Part shown: positions 1,413 through 47,306 of the stretch, piece by piece
How positions within the stretch are numbered: the stretch's first letter is position 1
Layout of the letters: the number at the start of each line of letters is the position of its first letter
Source: a virus
Direction: 5' to 3' (one strand)
DNA: 64,000 nucleotides
IMG/VR virus record: IMGVR_UViG_3300029177_000001
Coordinates: 26,630-90,629 of that record
The notes under the pieces: generated by a model
Seen by the model: only the letters and a program-made list of their open reading frames with translations
Told to the model about the DNA's origin: nothing
Databases searched by the model: none
Made by a program: the position numbers and the translations under genes

Positions 1413-2876
1413 ATGGCAAAGAAAATCAGAAAAAAGACTTTATCTCTGGAATCATACCTGGAGGAAATAGTAGAAGAGGATATCAGTGATAACCAGGATG
1501 TACAAAGGTTATTTTGTTGGGAAAATGGGATGATAAATGAGTTGATCAAAACGGTATTGACCGATGATTATATTCCTCCGATTATTTTGGGCGAAGAAGA
1601 TTTAGATGAAGATGTCGTGCAGCAATATATCGTAGATGGAATGCAAAGAAGTTCTGCATTGATTAAATTTAAGCATGAAAACTATAAAATTACAGCTACT
1701 TTAGAAGATCCGATTATCCAATATCAGAGAAAAAAGAAAGATGAAAACAATAAAATCTGTAAAGATGAATATGGAAAAGTTATTTGGGAATCTGTTGAAT
1801 ATGATTTGAGAAGAAAAACATATGAAATGTTGCCGCCAGAATTGAAAAAAATGTTTGATGATTATCAGATTGATATTACAATACATCAACACTGCACGAT
1901 GTCACAGATTAGTAAGTTGGTGAGAAGATATAACAATCATTTGGGAATGAATACATCTCAGAAAGCATTTACTTATATTGATTTACATGCAAGAAAAATA
2001 AGGACAATATCTGAGAAAAATAAATTCTTTAAAAATTGTATGTCTTGTTCCGGTAAACAGCAATCGAAAGGTATTAGAGAAAGACTTGTATGTGAATCTG
2101 TCATGACAACGTTTTTCTTTGATAACTGGAAAAGTGCAATAAAAAATATGAGCAAATACCTAAATGAGAATGCAACAGAAGAACATTTTGATACTGTAAA
2201 TGAATATTTTAGCAGGATTGAATCTGTGTGCAAAGATAATTTCACAGAAGTGTTTGTGCCAAAAAATGTTATTGTTTGGATTCCTGTGTTTAAAGAGTTT
2301 GCTAAATTTGGATTAGATGATATTAAGTTTAAGGATTTTGTAGAAGAATTTGAAAAGTCTTTATATAAAAAAGATGTAAATGGAGTAACATTTGACAAAT
2401 TAAACGAGGATCGTCATACAAAAGGCAAGGCTATTTTAAAAGAGAAAATTAACATCTTAACTGCTCTCATGAAAGAGTATTTACATATTAAAGAAGATGA
2501 AGGAAACTTTGTTGAAGTAGAAGAGAATAATGTAATTGAAAATGTTTGTACAGAACAGAATACACTAGAATTCATCAGACATAACGTAAAAGAAGATGTT
2601 ATCGAAGATGATATTGAATTGTACAAATCACTGCTAGAAGACTGGTCAGTGGAAGTGGATAATTCGTCAAAACTTCTTGAACCTGGAAATAATAATTCAT
2701 TACTTGCCGTAATTGCATACAGTATTGAAAATGAACTTGATGAAGAAATTCCGGCATGGATGATGAGTTTCTTTAAGAGAAACGATACATATATTAAAGA
2801 TCAGAAAGAGAATTATACATATATGGTGAATGATCTTAGTGAATTTTTGAGACATAAATATGAACTTGCTGGATAG
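1413..2876 (+). CDS. DUF262 (ParB/Srx-fold, GmrSD N-terminal-like) domain protein
   Basis: N-terminus 'QRLFCWENGMINELIKTVLTDDYIPPIILGEE...QYIVDGMQRSSALIKF' matches the DUF262 pattern (QR..W, IP.I, DGQQR-like 'DGMQR'). C-terminal 300 aa unassigned. Confidence 0.7.
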   Translation: MAKKIRKKTLSLESYLEEIVEEDISDNQDVQRLFCWENGMINELIKTVLTDDYIPPIILGEEDLDEDVVQQYIVDGMQRSSALIKFKHENYKITATLEDPIIQYQRKKKDENNKICKDEYGKVIWESVEYDLRRKTYEMLPPELKKMFDDYQIDITIHQHCTMSQISKLVRRYNNHLGMNTSQKAFTYIDLHARKIRTISEKNKFFKNCMSCSGKQQSKGIRERLVCESVMTTFFFDNWKSAIKNMSKYLNENATEEHFDTVNEYFSRIESVCKDNFTEVFVPKNVIVWIPVFKEFAKFGLDDIKFKDFVEEFEKSLYKKDVNGVTFDKLNEDRHTKGKAILKEKINILTALMKEYLHIKEDEGNFVEVEENNVIENVCTEQNTLEFIRHNVKEDVIEDDIELYKSLLEDWSVEVDNSSKLLEPGNNNSLLAVIAYSIENELDEEIPAWMMSFFKRNDTYIKDQKENYTYMVNDLSEFLRHKYELAG

Positions 2877-2893
2877 ATGGAGGTGAATAATAT

Positions 2894-3055
2894 ATGGATA
2901 AAACATTTTGGAACATAATGTCAGTAGGTGGATTAATTACATCGTGTTTAGCCGGCGCTAGATTATATGAAATTGGAGAAGAAGCATTTTTCTATGGATT
3001 TGTATTGGGTATCGGAGCATTGATGTTCGCTGCAAAATATATGGGAGATGAATAG
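2894..3055 (+). CDS. small membrane protein (53 aa)
   Basis: Not in ORF track (<60 aa). ATG 2894 preceded by ggaggtg. Translation MDKTFWNIMSVGGLITSCLAGARLYEIGEEAFFYGFVLGIGALMFAAKYMGDE has two hydrophobic segments. Confidence 0.45.
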   Translation: MDKTFWNIMSVGGLITSCLAGARLYEIGEEAFFYGFVLGIGALMFAAKYMGDE

Positions 3056-3159: not shown

Positions 3160-3924
3160 ATGTGTGAATTTAAAAGTGGAATTATTTTTAAGAATAGGGT
3201 GGAACTTGCGCCATTAGGGAATGAAAGTCATTCAAGTTTACTTGAAAACTTGGATGTAGAAGATAATGAATTTAATGCTTCTAAGAAATTTGTGAGAGCA
3301 GAATTAATTCCGCCAGAGAGATATGTTATCACTTCTGATATTTCAAAGTGGACTTATAAAGTCGATCAGGATATTGTGCCAGAATGGTATAGTAACGATC
3401 CAGAGAGATATGAAGAGGAATTTAAAGAATCTGTTAAGAATTTTATGGATAAAAATTTTACAGATGAATTTGGATATTATTGGACAAACATTCGAATGGA
3501 TGGAAAGATATATCATTTTATGTATGGAGTTCTTACGAAGATGAGTTTTGGTAGCAATAATAATTACGCAGAATCTTCTGTAAGAAAATATCTTAAAGAG
3601 CACAAACTTGCAAAAGACATTAAAGATAAATATGGGAATAGTATTGTTCCGTTTGAAAATAACTTGCTTAGTATGGATGGATTTAATGATTATGGCGTTG
3701 TAAAAGACGATGTATTATCTATTCCGACATTTTATTTATTCAGAAAATGTGGTGAAAAACTTCCATTAATCAATTATGCATACTGGCAGTCAACTCCAAA
3801 CCAGACACCGTCAAGAAAAGATTCTTCCTATGTTCAGGTTGTCTACAGTGGTGGGAACATGGGTTACGACGATTGCTGCTGGCTTGATCATGGGGTTCGT
3901 CCGTTTTTTATCACCGAATCTTAA
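3160..3924 (+). CDS. DGR variable (target) protein, C-terminal C-type-lectin/DUF1566-like fold
   Basis: C-terminus 'YWQSTPN...SYVQVVYSGGNMGYDDCCWLDHGVRPFFITES' contains the VR. The '...W..HGVRP' ending is typical of CLec-fold DGR targets. RBS aaaggag upstream of ATG 3160. Confidence 0.9.
   Translation: MCEFKSGIIFKNRVELAPLGNESHSSLLENLDVEDNEFNASKKFVRAELIPPERYVITSDISKWTYKVDQDIVPEWYSNDPERYEEEFKESVKNFMDKNFTDEFGYYWTNIRMDGKIYHFMYGVLTKMSFGSNNNYAESSVRKYLKEHKLAKDIKDKYGNSIVPFENNLLSMDGFNDYGVVKDDVLSIPTFYLFRKCGEKLPLINYAYWQSTPNQTPSRKDSSYVQVVYSGGNMGYDDCCWLDHGVRPFFITES
3826..3905 (+). repeat. DGR variable region (VR)
   Basis: 80-nt alignment to 4411..4490 at constant offset 585. 13 mismatches, every one at an A in TR. 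All 55 non-A positions identical. Confidence 0.93.
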
Positions 3925-4381: not shown

Positions 4382-4410
4382 AATTTTTTTTGGTTGTTTG
4401 CTATATGACT

Positions 4411-4490
4411 TCCTATGTTCAGATTGTCAACAGTAATGGGAACATGAATTACAACGATTGCAACTGGAATAATCATGGAGTTCGTCCGTT
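4411..4490 (+). repeat. DGR template region (TR)
   Basis: Invariant copy of VR. Rich in AAC/AAT codons in the target reading frame (SYVQIVNSNGNMNYNDCNWNNHGVRP). Confidence 0.93.
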
Positions 4491-4609
4491 CTGGATCGGA
4501 AGACGAAATAGAGTAAGAGAAACACTGAAATTAGAGTCCCGATATCAAAAGAGCAAACAACCTTTCCTGTCTAATCAAAGACAGGATAAATACAAAGGTA
4601 GAATATATC
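4411..4609 (+). ncRNA. DGR template RNA (TR plus spacer region preceding RT)
   Basis: Non-coding 119-nt spacer between TR and the RT start contains hairpin cctgtct(4566-4572)/agacagg(4579-4585). ORF-track ORF 4390..4623 is just a translation of this RNA. Confidence 0.7.
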
Positions 4610-5647
4610 ATGATAAAAGGTAAAACAGATTTTGAAAAGGTATCGGATTTTGAAAATTTATATAAAGCGTATTTGGATTCAAAAGGTGGAAGAGGATTCA
4701 CAAAAAGCAGAATTAAATTTGAAATATCTGCCCTTGATGGGGTGTACCAGATTAAAAGACTTTTAGAAACAAAGAGATATGAAGTAGATAGATATAACAG
4801 ATTCAAAGTATATGAACCAAAAGAGAGAATTATAGAAGCAGGAAGTTTTAAAGACAAGATTGTGCAGCACAGTTTGTGTGACAATGTACTTCTTCCTATT
4901 TTAAGTAAGGAGTTTATATACACGAATTATGCTGGACAAGTAGGTAAAGGGACATTGTTTGGCTTAGACTGTTTGAAATATCAGATGTATTTAGCATATC
5001 AAAAATATGGATATGATTGCTGGATTATCAAAGGAGATATCAAAAAATTTTTTTATAATATTGAGCATGATGTTTTGAAAGATATTGTTTCTTACTTTAT
5101 ATCAGATTCAGATACATATTGGCTGTGCGAGAAATTCATTGATAGCACAAGTGAAAAAGGTCTACCGCTTGGAAATCAAGTTAGTCAGGTATTTGCTTTG
5201 TTATATCTCTCTGGTTTTGATCATTTTATAACCGGAGAATTAGGAATTAAATATTACGGGAGATACATGGATGATTTTTACTTAATTGTAGAATCAAAAG
5301 ATTATGCAAAATTCTGTTTACATGCTGCTGAAGAGTTTACTAAAACATTAGATATTGATCTGAATGAAAAAACTCAGATTATTCCTTTTAAAAATGGAAT
5401 TAAATTTTGTGGTTTTCACACCTATGTTACAAAAGATGGAAAAGTGATAAGAAAACTTGCAAATGAAAAGAAGAGAAAAGCAAAAAAGAAATATCGAAAA
5501 ATGGCAAAGATGTTAAGAGAGAATAAGTTATCAAAAGAAAAATTCCTAGAATCTTATGAATCTTGGAAGAATCATATTTCACATGGAAATTGTGTGAAAT
5601 TCACGTATGAGATGGACAAAATGGTGAATGAAATACTGTTTGGTTGA
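4610..5647 (+). CDS. DGR reverse transcriptase
   Basis: Motifs 'LPLGNQVSQVFALLYL' ([LIV]GxxxSQ, DGR hallmark), 'GRYMDDFYLIV' (YMDD) and 'IKFCGFH'. About 345 aa, typical DGR RT size. Confidence 0.93.
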   Translation: MIKGKTDFEKVSDFENLYKAYLDSKGGRGFTKSRIKFEISALDGVYQIKRLLETKRYEVDRYNRFKVYEPKERIIEAGSFKDKIVQHSLCDNVLLPILSKEFIYTNYAGQVGKGTLFGLDCLKYQMYLAYQKYGYDCWIIKGDIKKFFYNIEHDVLKDIVSYFISDSDTYWLCEKFIDSTSEKGLPLGNQVSQVFALLYLSGFDHFITGELGIKYYGRYMDDFYLIVESKDYAKFCLHAAEEFTKTLDIDLNEKTQIIPFKNGIKFCGFHTYVTKDGKVIRKLANEKKRKAKKKYRKMAKMLRENKLSKEKFLESYESWKNHISHGNCVKFTYEMDKMVNEILFG

Positions 5648-6624: not shown

Positions 6625-6695
6625 TGTGGATTAGTGTAACTGGTAGCACGATGCAGCGTGGCACATAAGTAAAGGTTCGATTCCTTTATCTACAA
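6625..6695 (+). tRNA. tRNA-like element with aberrant anticodon arm (possible pseudo-tRNA)
   Basis: Hand fold: 7-bp acceptor tgtggat/atctaca, U8, D arm gtgt-aactggta-gcac with GG, and perfect T arm aaagg-TTCGATT-ccttt. The 20 nt between position 26 and the T arm give no 5-bp stem with a 7-nt loop. No encoded CCA. Confidence 0.4.
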
Positions 6696-12959: not shown

Positions 12960-13778
12960 ATGGATAACAGCAATTTAGCAAAAAGAATGAAACAATATGA
13001 AAGTGTTTCAAAATCAACATTGATAAGACGTATGCCAGTGATCATCAGGCTTGACGGTAGAAGTTTTCATACATTTACAAAAGGGTTTAAAAGACCATTC
13101 GATGATGTATTAGTAAAAACAATGCAAGAGACAATGAAATACCTTTGTGAAAATATTCAAGGATGTGTATTAGGTTATACGCAGTCTGATGAAATTACAC
13201 TTGTGTTAGTAGATTATAAGAACTTAGATTCTCAACCTTGGTTTGATGATGAAGTGCAGAAGATATGTAGTATTGCAGCAAGTATGGCAACTATGGCTTT
13301 TAATAAAAATTTTGAACTTTTTTCTTTAACGATGCGATTAAAAGACTCTGTAGAAAGTAATAAACTTGGTGCAGTATATAAACAAGCAATGAATAAAGGT
13401 GCAATGTTTGATGCAAGATGTTTCAATATTCCAAAAGAAGAAGTAACTAATAATATTTACTGGAGACAACTTGATGCAACGAGAAATTCTATTCAAATGG
13501 TAGGACAAGCTAATTTTTCACATAAAGAATTACAGAATAAATCGTGCAATCAAATTCAAGACATGTTATTTACACAAAAAGGAATTAACTGGAATGATAT
13601 TTCTACATATTTAAAAAGAGGAAGTTGCTGCATTAGAGAAAATTATATTTTTGAAAATTCAAACCCAAATGGTGAGACGTGTGTAGAACGAAGTCGTTGG
13701 ATAATCGACAAAGAAATCCCTATTTTTAAGGGTGAGAATAGAGAATATATTAATAGATTGGTATATGTAGGAGAATAA
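12960..13778 (+). CDS. tRNA(His) guanylyltransferase family protein (Thg1-like, 3'-5' nucleotidyl transferase)
   Basis: 'MKQYESVSK...RMPVIIRLDGRSFHTFTKGFKRPFDDVLVKTMQETM...GYTQSDEITLVL' matches the Thg1/TLP N-terminal catalytic pattern (RxDG..F, KP.D, SDE). Confidence 0.85.
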   Translation: MDNSNLAKRMKQYESVSKSTLIRRMPVIIRLDGRSFHTFTKGFKRPFDDVLVKTMQETMKYLCENIQGCVLGYTQSDEITLVLVDYKNLDSQPWFDDEVQKICSIAASMATMAFNKNFELFSLTMRLKDSVESNKLGAVYKQAMNKGAMFDARCFNIPKEEVTNNIYWRQLDATRNSIQMVGQANFSHKELQNKSCNQIQDMLFTQKGINWNDISTYLKRGSCCIRENYIFENSNPNGETCVERSRWIIDKEIPIFKGENREYINRLVYVGE

Positions 13779-15480: not shown

Positions 15481-15789
15481 ATGGGTAGTTTTGAAATACA
15501 TGGAATTCAAAATGTAAGCTTTGTAGATCTTAAAACTGGAAAGAAGATAAATATAGAAAATGCAGAAGTATCGACATTGAGCGAAAGCAAGGATGTTAAT
15601 GAGCGGAAACCTACTGGTAAGCTGGATATTTCTAAAACACCACATTTTACATGTGAACTTACATATCTAAATAGGAAGGAACTCTTTTGGGCATTATATG
15701 GAATCACAAATAACTACAGAAGATTACATGGTGGACATGCATTGAGAGAAACAACCAGAAGAAGATACATAATGAAACATAAAAAATGA
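15481..15789 (+). CDS. hypothetical basic protein
   Basis: Plus-strand ORF in array. Confidence 0.5.
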   Translation: MGSFEIHGIQNVSFVDLKTGKKINIENAEVSTLSESKDVNERKPTGKLDISKTPHFTCELTYLNRKELFWALYGITNNYRRLHGGHALRETTRRRYIMKHKK

Positions 15790-15791
15790 AT

Positions 15792-15873
15792 AAAAAAGAC
15801 ACACATCTCCGCGACCAAACTTTGATGTGTGTCTGTAAACACAAATACACTGAATAATTTGGAATCCAATGCA
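15792..15873 (-). ncRNA. candidate antisense small RNA (copy 1): promoter, conserved core, intrinsic terminator
   Basis: On the minus strand: TTGACT (15908-15903), 17-nt spacer, TAATAT (15885-15880). Then conserved core (complement of 15836-15863), 11-bp hairpin (15834-15824/15807-15797) and UUUUU (complement of 15796-15792). Confidence 0.5.
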
Positions 15874-15948
15874 TTTATTATATTACATATCTTTACATGT
15901 TTAGTCAAGCATGGATTTCCAAATTAAGAAAATTGAATATAGATAGGA

Positions 15949-16776
15949 GTGATTATTATCGGAGAGTACAAGCCAATTAATTTTACATATTATGATCCGA
16001 GAACCAGCATTTTTAAATCTGGGAAAAGTGACAGAGAAAGTATTTCTGTTTATAAGTGTAATAATTGCGAAAATTGCGATGCTTATAAGCGTAAATGTTG
16101 TGTGATGCTAAATTGGAGGCATAGTTGTCCTTACGGCACAATTGAAAAGAAAGAAGGTTTTACAAAAGCAGCACGTAAATGCGGATATTTAGTAAGTGAA
16201 TATAAGGGAAAATACGGAGATGTTGAATATGCGTTAAAATCATTAAATTTTGTATGTGAAATTGGAGATTATGTTTTTCTTGGATTGCCGCATCTTAATG
16301 GATATAATAATCCAATTCGAAATAGTGATTTCTTTGTAGATGATGACATGATTAAAAAAGATGAATTTACACCTGAATTCGTTGTAGAGCTTATTAAATA
16401 TAAACCATATGCGCTCATGGGTGGAGTAATTTCTTCTTATCAGAAAGAATATGTTCCAAAGTTTTGTGATCAACTAAAAAGACTTATGCCTGACATATAT
16501 AGAAAAGTATGTGAAATCTATCCGGAAATTGAACAGATAGTGGAGAATATTGATTATATAGACAAGATGGCAAAATTAATGACACTTCTTCCTGGGAAAG
16601 TTAAATTATCCACAGATATTCTTGAGTGGGATGGTGAATTATTACATGGGAAAGGAAAACAAATTTCTTTTTGGAAACTAAATGATGAGGAAGTGATTAT
16701 TTTTCCAAATAAAAACACGATAGTAACAATTTGTGATAATTCAACGGTGACTGAAGAGACAGAATTTATTGAATAG
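15949..16776 (+). CDS. hypothetical protein, N-terminal Cys cluster
   Basis: 'CNNCENCDAYKRKCC'. GTG start after aggag. Confidence 0.55.
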   Translation: MIIIGEYKPINFTYYDPRTSIFKSGKSDRESISVYKCNNCENCDAYKRKCCVMLNWRHSCPYGTIEKKEGFTKAARKCGYLVSEYKGKYGDVEYALKSLNFVCEIGDYVFLGLPHLNGYNNPIRNSDFFVDDDMIKKDEFTPEFVVELIKYKPYALMGGVISSYQKEYVPKFCDQLKRLMPDIYRKVCEIYPEIEQIVENIDYIDKMAKLMTLLPGKVKLSTDILEWDGELLHGKGKQISFWKLNDEEVIIFPNKNTIVTICDNSTVTEETEFIE

Positions 16777-22499: not shown

Positions 22500-24335
22500 A
22501 TGGTAGAAAATAAAGATAAAAAATATAATTCAGATAAACATTGGGAACTTGTAAATTTTTGTGAATTTGATAAGTATGCAACAAAAAGCTACTGTGCAAT
22601 TCACGATGTAGATGAAAGTAAAAATCTTGGTGATATCACAAAGGTCGATGAAACTGAATTAGATGATTTTAATATGATTTGTGGAGGATCACCGTGCCAG
22701 GATTTCAGCGTGGCAGGAAAACAAAAGGGGTCTGTATGGACTTGTAAAGATTGTGGACATGAATATAATCCATTAACAGTTCATTGGAGTAAAAGAGATT
22801 GTTGTCCGAATTGTAAAAGCGAAAATATTGAAAAAACAAGATCATCTCTTCTTGTAGAATATTTACGAGTAGTTAGAGCAAATAAACCTAATTTTGGAAT
22901 TTATGAGAATGTAAAAAATATTGTTGGGAAACAGTTTAAAGATACAACTTTTAAATTATTTACTGATGAATTAGAGGAATATGGATATAACGTATATTGG
23001 AAGGTTTTGAATGCTAAAAATTATGGAATTCCACAGAACAGAGAACGTGTATATCTATTATTTATTAAAAAGGATTTGGATAATGGTAAGTTTGAATTTC
23101 CGGAACCTTTTGATAATGGTCTGAGATTGAAAGATTTATTAGAAGATAAAGTTGATGAGAAGTTTTATATTTCTGATGAGAAAGTTAATAGATTTATTAC
23201 AAATTTAAATGACAAAAATTCTTTATTATATGATCCATGCCAAGTAAAAAGAGAAGGAAAGAGCAGAGAATATTCTGAATATGCACCAACATTAACTTCG
23301 AGAGATTATAAAGATCCAAGATTAGTAAATGAAAATGTTGTAAGACAAGTTGGAAATATTTCCGATTGTAATGGAGCATGGGACAATCCGCAAGTAGGGA
23401 GAGTTTATGATGTAAGTGGTTGCAGTCCAACATTGAATACATGCAGTGGTGGTGGTCATGAACCGAAGGTTATTACAGGAATTGATAAGTCATATAACAA
23501 TCCAAAATTCATTGAAACAGCTAATTGTATTACTTCACGAGAAGATCGTGGTGTTTCAAATAGGGAATCCGAAGGTACAGCAGTTTTAGAAACTCCAAAT
23601 ATTAGTTATTGTTTGGATTCTAACTATTACAAAGGAACAACAATAGAACAATATATGAATAAACATCGTAGACAATTGATAGTCGAAAATAATAAAGTTG
23701 CAATCAGACAAGCCACTAAGCAAGGTTATATCGAATGTGAAGTAGGTGGAGTTGCAGATTTGTCTTATCCAGACAGTAAAACTAGAAGAGGCCGAGTACA
23801 GGATAATGGGAATACATGTCCGACAATTACTGCAACAGAAACAGGCATTTGTAGAATTGAGCCTAAAGAAAGATTTTTTAAACAAGCACTTGAAACTTTA
23901 AATGAAAATGATTGTAACTCTGGAGATACAATTAATGCATTTAATAAACATGTAGATAAAAGTGGGTATTCTCCTACATTAACAACAAGACCAGAAGGAT
24001 TTAAAACAGCAATTCTACCAGTTACAGATGATATTAGAATTCGTAAGCTAACTCCAAAAGAGTGTTTCAGGCTCATGGGATTTTCTGATGAAAATTTCGA
24101 TGCAGCACAGAAAGCAGGAGTTTCAAATAGTCAATTATATAAACAGGCAGGTAATTCAATTGTGGTAGATGTTCTTTATTACATATATGTAGAGTTATAT
24201 AAAGCTATGCCTTATTTGTTTGATGATCTGAAATTAAGTAGTTTCTTTTCAGGAATTGGCGCTTTTGAGATTGCGCTTGATAAATTATATAAAGGTATCA
24301 ATTCCGGAAATTTTATCAATCCACAGACAGAGTAA
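22500..24335 (+). CDS. DNA (cytosine-5)-methyltransferase, SPR-like with several TRD-like modules, motif I at the C-terminus
   Basis: 'GGSPCQDFSVAGK' (IV), 'ENVKN' (VI), 'QNRERV' (VIII), 'RKLTPKECFRLMGF' (IX), 'LYKQAGNSIVVDVL' (X), then 'LSSFFSGIGAFEIAL' (I) at aa 580-594. About 330-aa variable region with repeated T(L/I)T modules. Zn-ribbon insert 'CKDCGH...CCPNCK'. Confidence 0.9.
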   Translation: MVENKDKKYNSDKHWELVNFCEFDKYATKSYCAIHDVDESKNLGDITKVDETELDDFNMICGGSPCQDFSVAGKQKGSVWTCKDCGHEYNPLTVHWSKRDCCPNCKSENIEKTRSSLLVEYLRVVRANKPNFGIYENVKNIVGKQFKDTTFKLFTDELEEYGYNVYWKVLNAKNYGIPQNRERVYLLFIKKDLDNGKFEFPEPFDNGLRLKDLLEDKVDEKFYISDEKVNRFITNLNDKNSLLYDPCQVKREGKSREYSEYAPTLTSRDYKDPRLVNENVVRQVGNISDCNGAWDNPQVGRVYDVSGCSPTLNTCSGGGHEPKVITGIDKSYNNPKFIETANCITSREDRGVSNRESEGTAVLETPNISYCLDSNYYKGTTIEQYMNKHRRQLIVENNKVAIRQATKQGYIECEVGGVADLSYPDSKTRRGRVQDNGNTCPTITATETGICRIEPKERFFKQALETLNENDCNSGDTINAFNKHVDKSGYSPTLTTRPEGFKTAILPVTDDIRIRKLTPKECFRLMGFSDENFDAAQKAGVSNSQLYKQAGNSIVVDVLYYIYVELYKAMPYLFDDLKLSSFFSGIGAFEIALDKLYKGINSGNFINPQTE

Positions 24336-24535
24336 AATCTGTTTGTGGGAAAGAATATTTCTGTCTGAAGTATCAGAGAACTGAATATGCAAAAAAGATT
24401 AGAAAAGAATACGAAACAGGTAAAATAAAAGAACGTAGATGCAATATGAGAGAATATACATTTAGGACAGATGGATGTAGCAATACAATAACAACAGTTC
24501 AAAAAGATAATTATATTGCAGAGATAAATAATTGA
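24293..24535 (+). pseudogene. relic of a second C5-methyltransferase copy (TRD fragment, no start codon)
   Basis: Frame +2 relative to the MTase reads '...CGKEYFCLKYQRTEYAKKIRKEYETGKIKERRCNMREYTFRTDGCSNTITTVQKDNYIAEINN*'. 'DG.SNTITT' is a TRD-type module. No RBS or start. Confidence 0.5.
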
Positions 24536-35090: not shown

Positions 35091-36119
35091 ATGAATCTGA
35101 AACAAATTAAAGAAACGATAAAGAAACAAGAATATGATTTCTTAAAAGAGAATGAGCACTTAGGTAACAATATTATCTTACTTACGCTTGGCGGCAGTCA
35201 CGCATATGGAATGGATAAAGAGGACAGTGATTTAGACGTAAGAGGAGTTACACTAAATAGCAAAGAGGAAATTCTTCTTGGAAAAGACTTTGAACAGGTT
35301 GTAGAGATTGATACAGATACGACAGTTTATTCATTCAATAAAATTTTACAATTACTAAAATCAAACAATCCTAACACTATTGAAATTTTAGGATGTAAAC
35401 CTGAGCATTATTTATATTTGTCTGATGTTGGAAGAGAATTGTTAAATAATAGAAAAATGTTCTTATCCAAGATTTGTATTAATTCTTTTGCAGGATACGC
35501 TTCAAGTCAATTAAGGCGTATGGAGAACAAAGCTGCTAGATTAGTTGGACAAGCACAAAATGAAGAGTACATTTTAAAATCAATTAATAATGCAAGTTAT
35601 GATTTTAAAAATCGTTATTTCCCAATGAATGATGGATCACTCAATCTTTATACAGATAAAGCAGTACAGGAAGGCTATGACACTGAAATTTTTATGGATA
35701 TTGACTTGCGACATTATCCTCTAAGAGATTGGGCTGGTATGTGGAATGAGATGAAAGCTATTGTAAGTAGTTATAACAAAATCGGTAGGCGAAACGAAAA
35801 AGCAATGAACAAGGACAAACTTGGAAAGCATATGGCTCATTTGATCAGATTATACATGATGTGTATTGACATTCTTGAAAAAGAAGAAATTATCACTTAT
35901 CGAGATAAAGAACATGATCTACTTATGAGTATACGAAACGGAGAATACTTAGATATCAATAGGCAGCCAACTTCTGAATTTTATGATTTGCTAAATGAAT
36001 ATGAAAAACGATTCGATTACGCTAAAGAAAATACTTCGTTGCCAAATGTACCGGACTACAAGAGAATCGAAGAGTTTAAAATGTATGTAAATGAACGAAT
36101 TGTGAAAGGAGATATATAA
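35091..36119 (+). CDS. PF10127 (RlaP)-type nucleotidyltransferase
   Basis: 'ILLTLGGSHAYGMDKEDSDLDVRGV' is a Pol-beta-superfamily NTase G[SG]..YG...SD.D motif as in the PF10127 family. Confidence 0.7.
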   Translation: MNLKQIKETIKKQEYDFLKENEHLGNNIILLTLGGSHAYGMDKEDSDLDVRGVTLNSKEEILLGKDFEQVVEIDTDTTVYSFNKILQLLKSNNPNTIEILGCKPEHYLYLSDVGRELLNNRKMFLSKICINSFAGYASSQLRRMENKAARLVGQAQNEEYILKSINNASYDFKNRYFPMNDGSLNLYTDKAVQEGYDTEIFMDIDLRHYPLRDWAGMWNEMKAIVSSYNKIGRRNEKAMNKDKLGKHMAHLIRLYMMCIDILEKEEIITYRDKEHDLLMSIRNGEYLDINRQPTSEFYDLLNEYEKRFDYAKENTSLPNVPDYKRIEEFKMYVNERIVKGDI

Positions 36120-37081
36120 TGGATATTTCTGAAAAACTGAAAGAACGTTTCTGTAAAGATTGTAATATTCCATTGAAACTATTTAAGGAACCATATTTTA
36201 CAGACAGACTTCAATTATATGATAACTATTACAATACATTGGATAAATGGAATATTTTTGTAAGAGAATTAGATAAATATAAGTGTGAGCAAGATTATCT
36301 TGAAGAATATAATCGAGTAAAGAATGCTGCAATAAAGGACATTAAAGATTCTGATGGTTACAAGAGATTTAATGTAGAAGACATGAATAAGTACACAGTA
36401 AAATACAAAGATCTTCCGGGAAAAGATATTTATAAACCATCAAACATCGGAAAACTGTTTATCAGTATTGATATGAGAAAGGCAAATTTTTCAGCATTAA
36501 AATTTTATGATAAAAGTATTTTTAGTAACTCTGATACATGGGAAGAATTTATTGAAAGATATACGGAGAATAAACATATCGTAAACAGCAAATATATTAG
36601 ACAAGTCATTCTTGGAAACTGTAATCCTAAAAGGCAGGTGACTTATGAAAAATATTTGATGGGTCTTGTATTAGAAGTTCTTATTGATGAATTAGGATAT
36701 TCCACTAGTGATATTGCGTTTTACTCTAATGATGAAATTGTTATTGATATGGGAAAATATAAAGGCTGTATAAATAAACAAAAAATATTAGAAATGGCAG
36801 TTAACGTACGTTTTAATATTCCATTCAGGATTGAATTGTTTTACTTACACAAAATTACTGGTACAGATGGATATTACAAGGAAATTGTAAAAAATATTAT
36901 TGAAATAGAATATGAATTTAAATGCTTAAACAATTATACATTACCATTTGTGCTGAGAAAGTTTAATGGAGAAGAAATCACTGAAAACGATAAAGTATTT
37001 TATCATGAAGGGCTACTATCAAAGTTTATGGAAGTACCAAATATGGAGGTAAAATTGAATGAAAATAAATATTCCGTCTGA
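36119..37081 (+). CDS. hypothetical protein (possible palm-type nucleotidyltransferase)
   Basis: Coupled on both sides (ATG overlaps upstream stop; 23-nt overlap with cca). 'ISIDMRKANFSAL' and 'FYSNDEIVID' are loosely reminiscent of family-A polymerase motifs A and C. Very tentative. Confidence 0.55.
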   Translation: MDISEKLKERFCKDCNIPLKLFKEPYFTDRLQLYDNYYNTLDKWNIFVRELDKYKCEQDYLEEYNRVKNAAIKDIKDSDGYKRFNVEDMNKYTVKYKDLPGKDIYKPSNIGKLFISIDMRKANFSALKFYDKSIFSNSDTWEEFIERYTENKHIVNSKYIRQVILGNCNPKRQVTYEKYLMGLVLEVLIDELGYSTSDIAFYSNDEIVIDMGKYKGCINKQKILEMAVNVRFNIPFRIELFYLHKITGTDGYYKEIVKNIIEIEYEFKCLNNYTLPFVLRKFNGEEITENDKVFYHEGLLSKFMEVPNMEVKLNENKYSV

Positions 37082-38396
37082 TGCAAATGAGTTGATTCAT
37101 ACACTTCAAAATCACGGAAATTCCGCTTATGTGGTAGGTGGTTGTGTAAGAGATAGCATCATTGGAAGACAAATTCACGATTGGGATATTTGTACATCTG
37201 CAACACCAGACGAAATGCTGGAGATTTTTAAGGATAAAAAAGTAATTGAAACTGGCTTAAAACACGGAACTATAACTGTTGTGGTAAAAGGAGAATCATA
37301 TGAATTAACAACATTTCGTATTGATGGAAAATATTCTGATAGTCGTAGACCTGATTCAGTAATTTTCACAAGTAGTTTAATTGAAGATTTAAAGAGACGT
37401 GATTTCACAATCAATGCAATGGCATATAATGATGACGAAGGATTAATTGATCCATTTGGGGGATTAGAAGATATTGAATATAAAAAAATTCAATGTGTAG
37501 GTTCTGAAAAAGATAGATTTGGAGAAGATGCTTTAAGGATCTTGAGAGCAATTCGTTTTGCTTCTCAACTTGAATTTGTGATGACCCCGGAAACAAGTTA
37601 TGAAATCAATAAACAATACAAAAATTTGAAGAATATTTCGATTGAGAGAATAAATAGTGAGTTTTGCAAAATCGCCGCATCAAGAGATTTCTGTGTAGAA
37701 ATGGTTTTATATAAAGATGTGTTTGCATTGTTTATACCGGAATTAAAAGATATGTTTGAATTCCAACAGAATAACCCATATCACGATTATGATGTTTACA
37801 GTCATACAGTACATTCAATTGAACATTGTAAATCCGATAATTTGGTTGTTAGATTGGCGGTTTTCTTTCATGATATTGGAAAACCTCATTCATTTCAAGA
37901 TGGCGAAGACGGTATTAGACACTTTAAAGGACATGGAAAAGTTAGTGCAGACATTACAGACAATATTATGAAACGTCTCAAATTTGACAATGAGACAAGA
38001 AATAATGTGGTTGAATTGGTGTATTACCATGATGCAACCTTTGAGGTTGGTAAAAAATATGTGAGAAGATGGATCAATAAGATTGGAGTAGAACAGTTTA
38101 GAAGACTATTGGAAGTTAGGAAAGCAGATATTTTAGGGCAGAAAGAATCTTATGAGCAGTATAGGATTAACAAAGTTAATAATATTAAACAAATTCTTGA
38201 AGAAGTTCTACGAGAAGAAACATGTTTTACACTTAAAGATTTAGCTGTCAATGGCAACGATTTAATGAGTATTGGTTATAAAGAAAACAAAGAATTAGGC
38301 AATACACTAAATGAATTATTACGATTAGTAATTGATGAAGAATGTCCTAATAAAAAAGAAAAATTATTAGAAGTAGCAATTGAAAGGAGAATGTAA
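37059..38396 (+). CDS. cca: CCA-adding enzyme (tRNA nucleotidyltransferase) with HD domain
   Basis: 'YVVGGCVRDSIIGRQIHDWDICT', 'RRDFTINAMAY', 'EDALRILRAIRFASQL' and HD 'FFHDIGKP'. ggaggt RBS. Confidence 0.9.
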   Translation: MKINIPSDANELIHTLQNHGNSAYVVGGCVRDSIIGRQIHDWDICTSATPDEMLEIFKDKKVIETGLKHGTITVVVKGESYELTTFRIDGKYSDSRRPDSVIFTSSLIEDLKRRDFTINAMAYNDDEGLIDPFGGLEDIEYKKIQCVGSEKDRFGEDALRILRAIRFASQLEFVMTPETSYEINKQYKNLKNISIERINSEFCKIAASRDFCVEMVLYKDVFALFIPELKDMFEFQQNNPYHDYDVYSHTVHSIEHCKSDNLVVRLAVFFHDIGKPHSFQDGEDGIRHFKGHGKVSADITDNIMKRLKFDNETRNNVVELVYYHDATFEVGKKYVRRWINKIGVEQFRRLLEVRKADILGQKESYEQYRINKVNNIKQILEEVLREETCFTLKDLAVNGNDLMSIGYKENKELGNTLNELLRLVIDEECPNKKEKLLEVAIERRM

Positions 38397-40382: not shown

Positions 40383-40601
40383 GTAAGATAATTCACGTAT
40401 AAAATTGCAAATCAATAGTTTCTATAAATTCAAATTATAGAATTAAATAATTTAAAAATTTGTCGTGAAAGTGCGACAGTTTCTTAAATGCACCCATTTT
40501 TGGGGTTTTACATAGAAATTTACATATTAGTAACTCTATGCTCCGGCTGCTGTGCGGTCGTTCACATATATAAATATACATACAAAAGGAGATTTTATTT
40601 T

Positions 40602-41789
40602 ATGGCAAGAAAAGAAAAAGCAGTTTTAGAAAAAAAAGGATGGTCAAATTCATTTGTACTGGTTGGAGAGGCAAAAATTAATGCTGATTATACATACAAA
40701 TTGGATGAACATTCTGAGAAATCAGATTGGGTTTACAATTCATTAAATCTTGGTGTTGATTGCGGAGATGTATGCGGAACAGTTTATGCCGAATTGATGG
40801 GCGGATATGGTGCAGAACGAGACAATGTTGTTTATGTCCATGGTAAAGACGCAGATGGCAAGGATGATTTTGAAAACAGATTTACTATTGATTGGGATGA
40901 CAGGTTTGATGAAAAAATCTTGGAGTCTGTCGGAGATTTATGTTTTATGACTGTCGGTCTTGAAAAGGATAAAAATGAAAAGGTGTTTTACAAAAAATTC
41001 TTAACACCATATGACATGATCGCTTATATCAATGAAAATCTAGAGGATGGAATGGTTGTTAATGTAAAAGGACAGCTTAAATATTCTTCATACGAAGGCA
41101 GTGTACAGGTAAAAAAAGAAATTTCAAGTCTTGTGCTTTCCAAAGTAGATGACAGAAGTAAGTATCATGCAAACTTTACACAGACAATGTTGCTTACAAG
41201 AGATAGTGTTGGCAAGCCAGACAAATCAACAGGAATTTTGCCAATCTATGCAAAGATTCTCGATTATGTAAAAGAGTATAAAGGAAAAGAAGTTAGATGC
41301 AATATTCCATATGATAAAGCATTTGAATATGAACTCGATTTAACTAAACCGGAGATGTCACAGAAAGTAATCGAAAAACTTTTTAAAGTGAAAAAGGGAG
41401 TTACAGAAATTACATTTGAAGGAGATTTGATTGAAGGCGGAGCAGTAGTCACAGCAACAGAAGATGATATTCCAGACGACATCAAAACTCTTATTGAGAT
41501 TGGTGTATTCACTTTAGAAGAAGCTCTTCAGAAATGTACTGTTAATTCAGGAAGAGAAAGGAGAATGGTTATTAGAAGACCACAGATTAAAAATGTTGAG
41601 GGAAAAGATGGGACAAAAACTCCAGTCCTCCAGAAGTTTGAACAGAAGTACGACGAAGATGATTTGATTCTTGATTTTATGTATGAAGAAGAATCAGAAG
41701 ATGAAAATAGTGATGTTTACGTCGAAGACGAATCTGAGGATGTTGCAGAAAATCCAAATGATATGTCATGGCTTGATGCACTTGGATAA
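40602..41789 (+). CDS. replication-module protein with acidic C-terminal tail (possible ssDNA-binding protein)
   Basis: ORF track 40488..41789. ATG 40602 after aaaggaga. First gene of the replication block. Tail 'EEESEDENSDVYVEDESEDVAENPNDMSWLDALG'. Function inferred from position and tail only. Confidence 0.6.
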   Translation: MARKEKAVLEKKGWSNSFVLVGEAKINADYTYKLDEHSEKSDWVYNSLNLGVDCGDVCGTVYAELMGGYGAERDNVVYVHGKDADGKDDFENRFTIDWDDRFDEKILESVGDLCFMTVGLEKDKNEKVFYKKFLTPYDMIAYINENLEDGMVVNVKGQLKYSSYEGSVQVKKEISSLVLSKVDDRSKYHANFTQTMLLTRDSVGKPDKSTGILPIYAKILDYVKEYKGKEVRCNIPYDKAFEYELDLTKPEMSQKVIEKLFKVKKGVTEITFEGDLIEGGAVVTATEDDIPDDIKTLIEIGVFTLEEALQKCTVNSGRERRMVIRRPQIKNVEGKDGTKTPVLQKFEQKYDEDDLILDFMYEEESEDENSDVYVEDESEDVAENPNDMSWLDALG

Positions 41790-41796
41790 AAGCATT

Positions 41797-41870
41797 AAAA
41801 AGTCTACGCAGCACAAGACTGCGTAGACAGCAAATAAAACACAAATACATTGAATAATTTGGAGGATAGA
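41797..41870 (-). ncRNA. candidate antisense small RNA (copy 2) overlapping the RBS of ORF 41875
   Basis: Minus strand: conserved core (complement of 41835-41863), 10-bp hairpin (41828-41819/41811-41802), UUUUU (complement of 41801-41797). Upstream promoter weak (TATATT only). Confidence 0.35.
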
Positions 41871-41874
41871 ATAT

Positions 41875-42987
41875 ATGGCAAGAAAATTTGGAAAGAAAAA
41901 AGAAGTGAAAATTGATCCATTAGCTTACAACATTGGACTGGCAGGATTATCTGGTATCGGTAAAACTACTCTTATTAAAAATGTATGTGAGGAACTTGTT
42001 GGAGAAGACGGATATTTAATGTTGGATATCGGGAAAGAAAGTGGACATGATTGTATTGATGGAATTGTGAGTGAAGAATGTGCGGACTGGGAGAAGTTAG
42101 ATGAAGTTCTTGATGACATTATTGACAATAGAACAACAGATTACAAAGATTTGAAAGTGATTGTTTTCGATACATTAGATGAATTATTTACAATTGGAGA
42201 GGAAGAAACGATTGCACAGTGGAATCGATCAAATCCGGACAAACGAACCAAAACAATTAACAGTGTAAATGGCGGATTTGGGAAAGGTCTTGATGCCTGT
42301 ATTGAAATGGTATTAGACAGAATTTGGTCTTTAAAAGATGTTGGAATTTCATTCATTGTAATTGTACATACAAAAACAAAAGACGTGGAAGATCCAATTA
42401 CAGGACAAACATATCAGGTTATTACAGCAAATATGCCACAAAGATATTTTAATGCAATCAAAACAAAATTAGATATTTTTGGTGTTGCATATATTGACAG
42501 AGATATTGTAACAGAAAAACTTGGTAGAAAAGATATTAAAGGAAAAGAAATTACAAGGAACGTTGTTTCAAAAGAGGCACGTAAAATTGCATTCAGATCA
42601 GATAATTATAATCTTGATAGTAAATGCAGATTTCCAGAAATTGTAAGCGAAATCGATCTTGATCCACATCAGTTTATCCAGGCAATTACAGATGCTATCA
42701 AAGCAGAACAAGCTAAATCAGGTAAATCATTTGAAGAATCTGAAAAAGAACAGGCTGCAAAGGAGGCAGAAGAAATGAAAGAACTGGCTAAAAAAGAGGC
42801 AGAAAAGAAAGAAGAGAAAAAAATTGAGTTTGTGATTGATCAGATTAAAGATTTTATCAAAGACAATAAGGGGAATATGGAAGCAATTAAACCATTGCTT
42901 GAATTTTCAAAAGAAAATGGATATGCGAACCCAACTTTAATTGACGATTTATCAATTGCGGAACAGGCATTGAAAATTATTGCTTAA
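41875..42987 (+). CDS. AAA_24 / Sak4-like RecA-fold ATPase
   Basis: 'YNIGLAGLSGIGKTTLIKNV' (Walker A), 'LKVIVFDTLDE' (Walker B). Size and position typical of phage AAA_24 recombination ATPases. Confidence 0.7.
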   Translation: MARKFGKKKEVKIDPLAYNIGLAGLSGIGKTTLIKNVCEELVGEDGYLMLDIGKESGHDCIDGIVSEECADWEKLDEVLDDIIDNRTTDYKDLKVIVFDTLDELFTIGEEETIAQWNRSNPDKRTKTINSVNGGFGKGLDACIEMVLDRIWSLKDVGISFIVIVHTKTKDVEDPITGQTYQVITANMPQRYFNAIKTKLDIFGVAYIDRDIVTEKLGRKDIKGKEITRNVVSKEARKIAFRSDNYNLDSKCRFPEIVSEIDLDPHQFIQAITDAIKAEQAKSGKSFEESEKEQAAKEAEEMKELAKKEAEKKEEKKIEFVIDQIKDFIKDNKGNMEAIKPLLEFSKENGYANPTLIDDLSIAEQALKIIA

Positions 42988-46094: not shown

Positions 46095-47306
46095 GTGTTT
46101 ATTATAGGACGCAAAACTAAAGAAGAATTAAATGAAATTATGTCTTATTACAAGACTGATCGATTATGGAGTTGGTCTAAATTTAATACATATCACACAT
46201 CTCCATATGAATACTTTCTTAAATATATAAAACATGTACCCGAAGATAGGGATGACTGTATCTATGTAGTTACCGGAGGAATGGCACATGAGATTATGGA
46301 AGATTTGTATTTAGGACATATTAAATATGAAGAGATGGATGAAAAATTCGAAGATTCTTGGCTGACAGCAGAAGTGGCTGATTTAAAATTTGACAGAAAC
46401 GACGAAAAGAAAAATGAGAGTGTTAAACAAAAATATTATGAATGTCTAAAACATTTCTTTAACCACCATAAGATGTTTGAACAGCATATGGAAATAGAAA
46501 GATTTGTAACAGCTAAAATTGGAGAAAATGTATTTCAAGGATATATTGATGCTGTTTATAAGGATAAAGATGGCAATTTTCATATATTAGATTGGAAAAC
46601 AAGTTCTATTTATAAAGGTAAAAAAGCAGAAAATGAATGCGGGCAGTTGATTGTGTATGCAATTGCATTGAACCAAATGGGAATTCCGATGGATAAAATT
46701 CGTATCTCATGGGATTTTCTAAAATATGTTTCAATTGATTGTCAGCAAGCAAATGGGAAATGGACAACGAGAGAAATTGAAAGAAATCAGATTGGCATGA
46801 AATTGCAAACAAGCGTGAAGATGTGGCTAAAAAAATGTGGATACGAGGAAAATCAGTTGGAGTATCTTGATCTTCTTATGCAGACAAATGATATTAAATG
46901 TCTTCCAAAAGATGTACAAGAAAAGTATAGAATGAATGATTGTATTGTGACAGTTTCAATCACAGAGGAACTTTTGAATAAATGGACAACAGATATTATC
47001 GAAACAATTTCTGAAATTGAAGAGAAGGAGGATAAATATAAGAAACTGAAAGATAGCAATTTATTAAAAGCAGAAAAAGAGTTTTGGGATTCAGATGACC
47101 TAGTAGAAAAGCAAAGCTATTATTTTTCTACATTATGTGCTTACTCTCCGAATGTACATCTGCCATATAAAAAATATTTAGACAAGCTAAATGCCAAGAA
47201 AGAGCAGCAGGATAATATTTTTGCAGGTGTTGGTGAAGATGCCATATCTAATGTTCAAGGAGAATTATTGGATGAAGACGATATGTCTTGGTTAAATGAT
47301 TTATAG
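46095..47306 (+). CDS. PD-(D/E)xK (Cas4/RecB-like) nuclease with acidic tail
   Basis: 'QGYIDAVYKDKDGNFHILDWKTS' (D...D.K core), 'GQLIVYAIAL'. Tail 'ELLDEDDMSWLNDL'. Confidence 0.7.
   Translation: MFIIGRKTKEELNEIMSYYKTDRLWSWSKFNTYHTSPYEYFLKYIKHVPEDRDDCIYVVTGGMAHEIMEDLYLGHIKYEEMDEKFEDSWLTAEVADLKFDRNDEKKNESVKQKYYECLKHFFNHHKMFEQHMEIERFVTAKIGENVFQGYIDAVYKDKDGNFHILDWKTSSIYKGKKAENECGQLIVYAIALNQMGIPMDKIRISWDFLKYVSIDCQQANGKWTTREIERNQIGMKLQTSVKMWLKKCGYEENQLEYLDLLMQTNDIKCLPKDVQEKYRMNDCIVTVSITEELLNKWTTDIIETISEIEEKEDKYKKLKDSNLLKAEKEFWDSDDLVEKQSYYFSTLCAYSPNVHLPYKKYLDKLNAKKEQQDNIFAGVGEDAISNVQGELLDEDDMSWLNDL

Follow-up and report, generated by a model that had tools for sequence, protein, structure and literature searches.

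A candidate plasmid-style countertranscript gene in a large gut phage and its predicted pairing with the leader of a replication gene

The copy number of the staphylococcal Rep_trans plasmid pT181 is controlled by a countertranscript, RNAI, which kisses the repC leader loop to loop so that a terminator containing the ribosome binding site (RBS) forms before the start codon; a pre-emptor repeat otherwise prevents formation of this terminator (PMC5703833, PMC3753616). In pMV158, RNAII's single-stranded 5′ tail pairs just upstream of the repB RBS and translation is blocked, the hairpin of the RNA being auxiliary (PMC4485353, PMC5703833). Regulatory RNAs encoded by phages are few, and almost all of them come from phages of Escherichia coli (reviewed in PMC12197685). 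Here we describe a 159-nt gap, at positions 15790–15948 of a 64,000-nt stretch of virus DNA (positions 26,630 to 90,629 of the IMG/VR record IMGVR_UViG_3300029177_000001; this whole stretch is referred to as the window), in which an independent small-RNA gene very probably lies on the minus strand. Comparison with related contigs leads us to favour, as rather likely, the reading that a plasmid-style countertranscript serves this phage as a trans-acting small RNA, repressing its replication module by pairing with the leader of an AAA_24 ATPase gene, and is at the same time antisense to read-through transcripts of its own locus.

The locus compares most closely with that of pT181 RNAI. Each specifies an RNA (predicted in the phage) of about 85–90 nt, antisense to its neighbours and served by a sigma-70-type promoter (constitutive in pT181). 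A short linker joins the 5′ hairpin of this RNA to a 3′ hairpin whose loop is 16 nt long, and a U-run follows; pT181 RNAI ends at the same kind of large-loop hairpin. The loops are near-identical (AAAGUUUGGUCGCGGA in the phage, AAACUUUGGUCAGGGC in pT181) and carry the UUUGGUC/YUNR motif; on the sense strand an A-run stands before the hairpin, and the RNA starts some 80–90 nt upstream of the next start codon. The phage locus differs in that it belongs to a phage of about 160 kb without a Rep_trans gene, and in having a second, unlinked complementary site at the replication module.

RNAII of pMV158/pLS1 is likened to the phage RNA by mechanism and not by sequence similarity: the proposed mode is the same, with a single-stranded stretch 5′ of the terminator hairpin pairing near the RBS of a replication gene. 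However, RNAII is encoded in cis opposite its target and is a 48-nt RNA with one hairpin whose loop has no U-turn, whereas the phage RNA lies 26 kb from its proposed target. The initial annotation of the window had likened the RNA to lambda OOP and P22 sar, which are also short untranslated phage RNAs, each made from its own promoter and ended at its own terminator, and which hold phage genes in check by pairing. These overlap the gene or RBS that they control, whereas the RNA described here overlaps no open reading frame (ORF), and nearer kin are found among the countertranscripts of Gram-positive plasmids, namely pT181 RNAI and, in mechanism, pMV158 RNAII. P1/P7 c4 and P4 CI are short untranslated phage RNAs that restrain genes by pairing at sites that are not simply their own complement; they arise by processing of longer transcripts and form part of immunity regions. 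We know of no pT181-type loop in OOP, sar, c4 or CI, and of none among these RNAs that targets the leader of a replication operon 26 kb away.

Layout and conservation of the candidate RNA gene

Both neighbours of the gap, ORF 15481–15789 and ORF 15949, face forward, as do all sizeable ORFs in the window, whose G+C content is 31%. The predicted RNA is contained entirely within the gap, its 3′ end falling 1 nt past the stop of ORF 15481 and its 5′ end about 75–80 nt upstream of the start of ORF 15949 (Table 1). That it is transcribed, and where exactly it ends, we infer from the sequence. The A6 run, the 11-bp hairpin lacking a T-run on the plus strand, the U-run on the minus strand and the TTGACT/17/TAATAT promoter listed in the initial annotation are all present, with small corrections to their coordinates; beyond the hairpin, the plus strand reads GTAAACAC, with no T-run, and the minus strand UUUUUAUU. 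Two other descriptions had to be revised. The terminator had been called canonical, but when set against the usual features of an intrinsic terminator (a G+C-rich stem, a loop of 3–8 nt and at least five U residues) the 3′ hairpin has an 11-bp stem, U5-6 and a 16-nt loop, as in pT181 RNAI. The 5′ part of the RNA had been taken as unstructured, and a conserved 10-bp 5′ hairpin (helix 1) was missed; the predicted minimum free energy fold has two hairpins (−26.9 kcal/mol, z = −4.1).

Table 1. Positions of the features discussed, in window coordinates
Feature	Position	Strand	Remarks
Predicted small RNA	15790–15874	−	about 85 nt; 5′ end predicted near 15874–15872, 3′ end in the U-run
−35 hexamer TTGACT	15903–15908	−	from promoter scan
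Promoter spacer	15886–15902	−	17 nt; about 6 positions vary, the length never
−10 hexamer TAATAT	15880–15885	−	from promoter scan; within an invariant 14-nt block, 15879–15892
5′ hairpin (helix 1)	15846–15873	−	15864–15873 pairs with 15846–15855; 8-nt loop 15856–15863
Linker, single-stranded, UAUUUGUGUUU(AC)	15835–15845	−	11 nt; complementary to the shared core where this is most conserved
3′ hairpin	15797–15834	−	11 bp, −16.6 kcal/mol; 16-nt loop 15808–15823, AAAGUUUGGUCGCGGA
Stem arms of 3′ hairpin	15797–15807 / 15824–15834		AGACACACATC / GATGTGTGTCT; 11 bp
U-run UUUUUAU, presumed 3′ end	15790–15796	−	3′ of hairpin
A-run	15792–15797	+	last A is the first base of the stem
Copy 1 of 27-nt core	15837–15863	+	on the minus strand, loop 1, helix 1 3′ arm and linker
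Right arm of inverted repeat	15910–15927		contains palindrome TGGATTTCCA (15912–15921); partner TTGGAATCCAA (15859–15869)
YorF-like protein	40488–41789	+	start of replication block
Hairpin upstream of target site	41802–41828	+	sequence unrelated to copy 1 hairpin; preceding A-run not conserved
Proposed trans target, AAA_24/Sak4-like leader	41837–41864	+	28-bp duplex predicted, without interruption and extending to GGAG of the Shine-Dalgarno sequence 41861–41865
AAA_24/Sak4-like gene	41875–42987	+	replication block; ATG at 41875

We compared more than 60 related contigs, some from IMG/VR (about 160 kb in length) and others from metagenomes of the human gut. Three sets of loci were retrieved: 24 by way of the downstream protein, 28 with a pattern for the promoter, and 33 from gut metagenomes with a pattern for hairpin and linker that left the promoter untouched. 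The first and third sets are thus unbiased as regards the promoter. Across 24 protein-retrieved and 31 metagenome loci neither the −35 nor the −10 hexamer changes, whereas about six positions of the 17-nt spacer do; the unchanging blocks in the unbiased sets read TATATTACATA[T/C]CT at the −10 and [A/G]GTCAAGCAT at the −35, the sole −35 variant, TTGACC, being seen in L003, L006 and L283.

An alignment of 15 distinct RNA variants distinguishes the two strands. When helix 1 is read on the minus strand, 150 of 150 cells are paired, with four pairs toggling between AU, GU and GC or between UA and UG, whereas the same columns read on the plus strand are 77% paired, since every G·U turns into C·A. 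This difference argues for an RNA made from the minus strand and, together with the minus-strand Rfam antisense match described below, supports the strand that was first proposed from the letters alone. True double-sided compensatory changes in the conserved structure are few (two pairs). In the 3′ hairpin about 98% of cells are paired whichever strand is read; a frequent variant gives U·G on the plus strand and C·A on the minus strand, and another does the reverse, as expected if the RNA and the complementary plus-strand transcript both fold. Its loop is nearly invariant among relatives. At least three to four U residues are kept after the stem in all variants, and variants in which the first of them is replaced have one more stem pair, T-A or C-G, with no fewer than four U behind it.

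The element begins directly after the stop codon of the upstream gene, whatever this may be. In this position at least two unrelated genes are found, and the RNA region is 87–98% identical where they differ. In L101, L078 and L003 this region is 93–96% identical, while the downstream ORF shows 65–70% identity in DNA and 56% in protein; in L079/L302 the element is kept with a different downstream gene altogether. Rather than the core and terminator being lost where the flanking genes are conserved, which the initial annotation had named in advance as an outcome that would speak against the gene, the opposite was seen: core, promoter and terminator are kept and the flanks are swapped or diverged. 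The persistence of the element beside such neighbours suggests a module of its own that is tied to no single gene as its leader. The downstream ORF also has more distant homologues, in other phages and beside SSB, RusA or methylase genes, and these have no such gap or element. As in trans-acting small RNAs, the promoter and the hairpin with its U-run are independent of the neighbouring genes and the structure is conserved on the minus strand.

Gene swaps fall exactly at the borders of the element, and it could therefore be asked whether this is a non-functional or selfish remnant, that is, a mosaic junction, a linker or a captured fragment of plasmid control kept by close kinship and recombination. 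The flanking genes are also more than 85% identical in most relatives, and the plasmid-like hairpin stands without its usual partner features. Such a remnant would not, however, be expected to stay as similar as it does where the flanks diverge, nor to collect substitutions in so structured a manner, with changes in the spacer and not the hexamers, only wobble or compensatory changes in helix 1, a stem pair gained when a U is lost, and an invariant loop. We regard this explanation as very improbable.

Coding potential was considered on both strands. Minus-strand ORFs of 56 or 64 residues were rejected as proteins, their start codon being changed and their frame shifted by a 1-nt indel in the core of a variant clade; because of this shift the predicted RNA is taken to be non-coding. 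An 11-codon mini-ORF on the plus strand (15869–15904) was also rejected, since the variant clade has no ATG there. The small-RNA promoter is bracketed by an imperfect 18-nt inverted repeat (15858–15875 / 15910–15927), and the palindromes TTGGAATCCAA and TGGATTTCCA lie on either side of it with their centres about 53 bp apart. This arrangement may represent a putative pair of protein operators or a plus-strand RNA hairpin.

The leader of the AAA_24 replication gene

The complement of loop 1, the helix 1 3′ arm and the linker recurs upstream of the AAA_24/Sak4-like gene. The initial annotation had noticed a repeated core before the GGAGG of this gene with one C/T difference, and this part stands; the core is 27 nt long, and the 'extra A' ascribed to the second copy arises only if a flanking T is included. 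Besides copy 1 (15837–15863) and copy 2 (41837–41863) the window contains no further copy when up to three mismatches are allowed (none expected from shuffles), and copy 2 ends in the GGA of GGAGG, 10 nt before the ATG. When the 5′ 38 nt of the predicted RNA were scanned against every 50-nt segment of the plus strand (2549 segments for background), predicted duplex energies were −58 kcal/mol at its own locus and −36.7 kcal/mol at the AAA_24 leader, compared with a background of −11.6 ± 3.2, which makes this leader by far the best non-self target in the window. The sole core difference (C at 15849, T at 41849) gives a G·U pair in the duplex. A second strong duplex, at 46656–46695 (−29.2 kcal/mol), was taken as chance, being interrupted and inside a gene, and a search of the window for a second site complementary to the 16-nt loop found none.

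The complementarity to the AAA_24 leader, pointed out in the initial annotation, is kept throughout the relatives in which both loci could be read: in 16 of 16 genomes the cognate pairs reach −23 to −39 kcal/mol. The motif AAACAC(A)AATACATT is retained 10–15 nt before GGAGG where the AAA_24 protein is only 60% identical, and in these relatives the hairpin ahead of the motif has changed in sequence. In phages whose AAA_24 is 45–50% identical the motif was not found, and identity over the full 27 nt is confined to one clade. One clade lacks 1 nt of the RNA linker (ACACAATACA), and in five of its genomes the leader shows the same deletion. The variant RNA is predicted to pair better with its own leader (−28.2 versus −24.8 kcal/mol), and so is the window-type RNA (−38.6 versus −22.6 kcal/mol). 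Since this co-variation of two loci rests on few events, it is supportive and not decisive. The part common to all genomes consists of the single-stranded linker and the first bases of the helix 1 3′ arm, which is where a seed would be expected; the 11-nt linker and the 8-nt loop 1 are probable seeds for pairing. Overall, the AAA_24 leader is moderately supported as a trans target of the small RNA.

The two copies of the core share the same plus-strand layout, in which the end of a gene is followed by a hairpin and then by the core. It is conceivable that the core is a signal of the plus strand, either a phage promoter or −10-like element or a protein site serving two operons; the hairpins would then be 3′-end or stabiliser structures of plus-strand RNA, and the minus-strand promoter and U-run would be incidental or secondary. 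Hairpins without a U-run do follow several plus-strand genes, here and in relatives, and one stem variant favours pairing on the plus strand (U·G). A weak promoter-like site, TAGACA/16/TACATT, overlaps copy 2, but the distance between the −35-like element and TACATT differs from relative to relative (8 to 20 nt), and a −35 is absent from copy 1. Nor is the core palindromic, and only two copies are present in 64 kb, the near-matches lying in coding sequence without hairpins. Moreover, the covariation in helix 1 is specific to the minus strand, and the fixed hexamers and variable spacer of the minus-strand promoter would be left unexplained. For these reasons we consider a plus-strand signal distinctly unlikely. 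As a general phage promoter the core was rejected, with two real copies only and four near-matches, all in coding sequence.

Copy 2 has a minus-strand promoter-like site and a T5 hairpin of its own and gave a weak match to the model of the phage RNA (15.9 bits, E 0.27). It is nevertheless unlikely to be a second small-RNA gene, because relatives do not keep its A-run and −10. Extra copies of the target motif stand in the AAA_24 leader of some relatives: L066 (about 2880–3000) has two in tandem, AAACATAAATACATTG and AAACACAAATACATTG, and L048–L058 (about 2870–3000) have a partial AAACACAAATA ahead of the hairpin.

Countertranscript similarity and proposed mode of action

Rfam in gathering mode reported a tRNA only in the window, and no ctRNA_pT181. 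With relaxed thresholds the best match was ctRNA_pT181 (RF00242) on the minus strand at 15888–15784, aligned over the full length of the model (positions 1–94) with E ~1e-3 for the region; its score of 37.4 bits is below the gathering score of 56 bits, so that the RNA is not a formal member of the family. This was the only match with E < 1 in 37 kb of relatives, which gave 34.4 and 33.3 bits. The alignment is driven by the 3′ hairpin, where the phage loop AAAGUUUGGUCGCGGA is matched to AAACUUUGGUcaGGGa and then CUUUUUAUUU in the family, the loop being aligned as AAA-UUUGGUC--GGA. Conversely, a covariance model built from the 15 phage RNAs placed the true countertranscripts of pT181 (20 bits), pC221 (19.6 bits) and an Enterococcus faecium megaplasmid (16.8 bits) top in each locus and on the right strand. 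These reciprocal scores of about 20 bits are a little above noise (16.9 bits in 26 kb of Clostridium phage c-st), and the matches carry weight because they land exactly on known RNAs. The predicted phage RNA resembles the ctRNA_pT181 family and is not a member of it; homology with the pT181 class is plausible, below formal thresholds. A DNA similarity search of the gap against cultured phages and against plasmids gave nothing meaningful, and a scan of GTDB species genomes with the promoter pattern gave no match.

On the plus strand, the leader at 15835–15960 contains no T-run hairpin and no repeat of GATGTGTGTCT or AGACACACATC, and constrained folding gave weak refolding and no convincing RBS switch. 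We found neither an attenuator nor an RBS-sequestering switch of the pT181 kind. In the absence from the phage sense leader of a terminator-type stem-loop IV and of a pre-emptor repeat, both of which can be read in the pT181 and pC221 leaders, attenuation of the pT181 type cannot operate.

The leader is of importance for the alternative that the RNA is a countertranscript acting in cis only. It would then control the plus-strand transcript that it overlaps, which reads through into ORF 15949 and the genes beyond, by kissing-loop pairing, duplex-triggered cleavage or transcriptional interference, and its 27-nt identity with the AAA_24 leader would merely have arisen when two intergenic regions recombined and would play no regulatory role. 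The countertranscripts that the RNA resembles are indeed encoded in cis, and the distance from its start to the downstream start codon, about 80 nt, is close to that in pC221 (about 90 nt). No plus-strand promoter is visible in the gap, so that the downstream genes would depend on read-through, and the initiation region of ORF 15949 is odd, with GGAG abutting GTG. However, the plus-strand leader has no attenuator, pre-emptor repeat or RBS-sequestering hairpin, and the element is kept where another gene stands downstream as well as where the usual one is only 56% identical. The restriction of the full 27-nt identity to one clade would fit a recombination by-product, but chance recombination does not explain the presence of the leader motif beside GGAGG across deep AAA_24 divergence, nor the complementarity retained in every genome in which both loci could be read. 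Action in cis alone is accordingly judged unlikely, if less so than a plus-strand signal or a remnant.

With regard to ORF 15949–16776 itself, GGAG stands immediately against its sole canonical start codon, GTG (window 15944–15960). The in-frame codons at normal spacing are ATT, ATT and ATC (ATA or GTT in relatives), and this suggests weak or non-canonical initiation. The protein belongs to no Pfam or PHROG family, and its homologues are unnamed phage proteins adjoining SSB, RusA or methylase genes.

In the trans-acting reading that we favour, host RNA polymerase would transcribe the RNA constitutively from the sigma-70-type promoter, and transcription would stop at the large-loop hairpin and U-run to give a probably short-lived RNA. 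This RNA would be built like pT181 RNAI, with a 5′ hairpin, a single-stranded linker and a 3′ hairpin whose 16-nt loop contains UUUGGUC (YUNR/U-turn). The linker, together with the loop and 3′ arm of the 5′ hairpin, would pair with the AAA_24 leader up to and into the Shine-Dalgarno sequence; ribosome binding would be blocked and/or the 28-bp duplex would become a substrate for RNase III, and the replication genes would be held down, either in the lysogen or as a timing device. The small RNA is also perfectly complementary to any plus-strand read-through transcript of the gap, and its promoter faces that transcription, so that strong early transcription of the plus strand would titrate the RNA and, by collision with its promoter, hinder its synthesis, thereby releasing the replication block. 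Repression as the direction of the effect, and the physiological role, are likewise what we infer from this arrangement.

Several results weigh against this interpretation. Promoter-like matches are no more frequent in the window than expected (6 found, 7.8 ± 3.3 expected), so that in AT-rich DNA the promoter match alone is at chance level; and the 3′ hairpin was not called by a simple terminator scan (0 sites found), its 16-nt loop being too large. The case must therefore rest on comparative evidence. Within that evidence, one common variant of the 3′ hairpin is U·G on the plus strand and C·A on the minus strand, and both covariance-model comparisons fall short in the manner described above. 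As regards the target, most of the 27-nt complementary region lies within helix 1, which must open for full pairing; the co-variation of RNA and leader represents one or two evolutionary events, and three mixed genomes pair with a 1-nt bulge (−24.5 kcal/mol). Finally, neither a homologue of the RNA nor the leader motif was found in the replication region of c-st, the nearest cultured relative.

If the interpretation is correct, the locus would be a well-supported regulatory-RNA candidate, and its bearer a large temperate phage of Ruminococcus gnavus, a species prominent in the human gut. A phage would have taken over the design of a plasmid copy-control RNA in order to control, from a distance, replication genes of its own. 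This prediction can be tested directly, as it names an exact RNA and an exact 28-nt target, and natural variant pairs and a culturable host are available.

The phage, and hairpins with the same loop on other mobile elements

The replication block is of the SPbeta/c-st type and runs in the order YorF-like protein, AAA_24/Sak4-like protein, DnaB, primase, PD-(D/E)XK nuclease, PolIII-alpha and RecD-like helicase; in the mechanism proposed above AAA_24 is its first gene. It is syntenic with the corresponding region of Clostridium phage c-st, the best cultured match, with 52% identity in PolIII-alpha. Botulinum neurotoxin phages of the c-st type persist as circular plasmids with a copy number of about one (PMC3098183). 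For the DnaB protein of the window, the 90% cluster includes records from Mediterraneibacter gnavus on contigs of up to 343 kb, and the small-RNA element and the phage helicase occur on contigs far exceeding the roughly 160 kb of the phage (the metagenome loci L282, L284 and L300 are 300–535 kb). The occurrence of the helicase on contigs of this size in M. gnavus implies a temperate phage. From these records the source element is identified as a temperate phage of Ruminococcus (Mediterraneibacter) gnavus, probably integrated in the host chromosome in some strains. A replication origin in the window was rejected, as the GC skew is monotonic across the window with no switch.

The loop of the 3′ hairpin has counterparts outside this phage group. 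The 15-mer TCCGCGACCAAACTT (window 15808–15822) was scanned against GTDB genomes and IMG/VR. Many of the matches are chance occurrences in coding DNA. In 12 of 120 genome matches, however, the 15-mer forms an exact hairpin loop, against about 1.5 expected, and about seven independent viral or plasmid-like elements can be added. The stems around it are unrelated and 7 to 14 bp long, often with an A-run on the 5′ side, and Rfam matched no family to these hairpins. Several phyla are represented, and the carriers are plasmids, prophages and integrative elements, with the hairpins often ahead of replication genes or adjoining integrases. In Trichormus the position is upstream of a Prim-Pol replication protein, and in Alkalihalobacillus upstream of an HTH_36-like protein beside an integrase; in Sphingobacterium the hairpin is on a 6-kb contig that also has a ParM-like gene. 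Firmicute phages have it in the interval that separates a small RHH-like gene from the following gene, and others are beside integrases or antisense to the leader of a DnaD-like rep gene. Hairpins with this loop were seen at L124, L176, L193, L219, L225, L230, L246, L248, L258, L259 and L263.

When 13 such hairpins, that of pT181 included, were aligned, compensatory changes appeared at 11 of 11 stem pairs; since the hairpins had been picked for having stems, these changes illustrate the pairing and do not test it. The loop consensus of the class is ...CC..GACCAAA.TT... in the sense direction, with GACCAAA as its invariant core; on the antisense strand this core is UUUGGUC and contains the YUNR U-turn motif, which fast-pairing antisense loops have in common (PMC4485353, citing Franch 1999). 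Loops that need match no more than their own partner should diverge between replicons, and the fixed core would therefore point to a common outside partner or constraint. One candidate partner is the ACCA 3′ end of an uncharged tRNA, pairing with UGGU; another candidate explanation is a universal fast-kissing module. The sharing of this loop among several phyla suggests a widespread antisense-control module missing from catalogues of RNA families. It is a tentative and rather improbable proposal that the phage RNA belongs to a large class of countertranscript hairpins, so far uncatalogued and shared by mobile elements across phyla, with a near-fixed loop and unrelated stems, and that it has been re-used here as a dosage-dependent brake on a replication operon.

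Other features of the window concern RNA. Strong hairpins without a U-run follow several plus-strand genes (24321–24348, 32466–32495 and 41802–41828) and also occur upstream of AAA_24 in L059–L071; in these phages they may act as RNA 3′-end or processing signals in place of classical terminators. Rfam reports a tRNA at 6625–6695 (46.9 bits), which may be atypical, ARAGORN having called none in the whole window. Auxiliary genes include a reverse transcriptase with a TR/VR repeat pair, a Thg1-like protein, a CCA-adding enzyme, a cytosine methylase and NrdD. Enzymes of RNA repair are encoded at 12960–13778 (Thg1-like), 37059–38396 (CCA-adding) and 35091–36119 (RlaP-like). The reverse transcriptase (4610–5647; RVT_1, E 1e-13) lies near the 89-nt repeat pair 3824–3912 / 4409–4497, and together they form a probable diversity-generating retroelement; the repeats are 82% identical and differ at A positions of the second copy, as between a template and a variable repeat.

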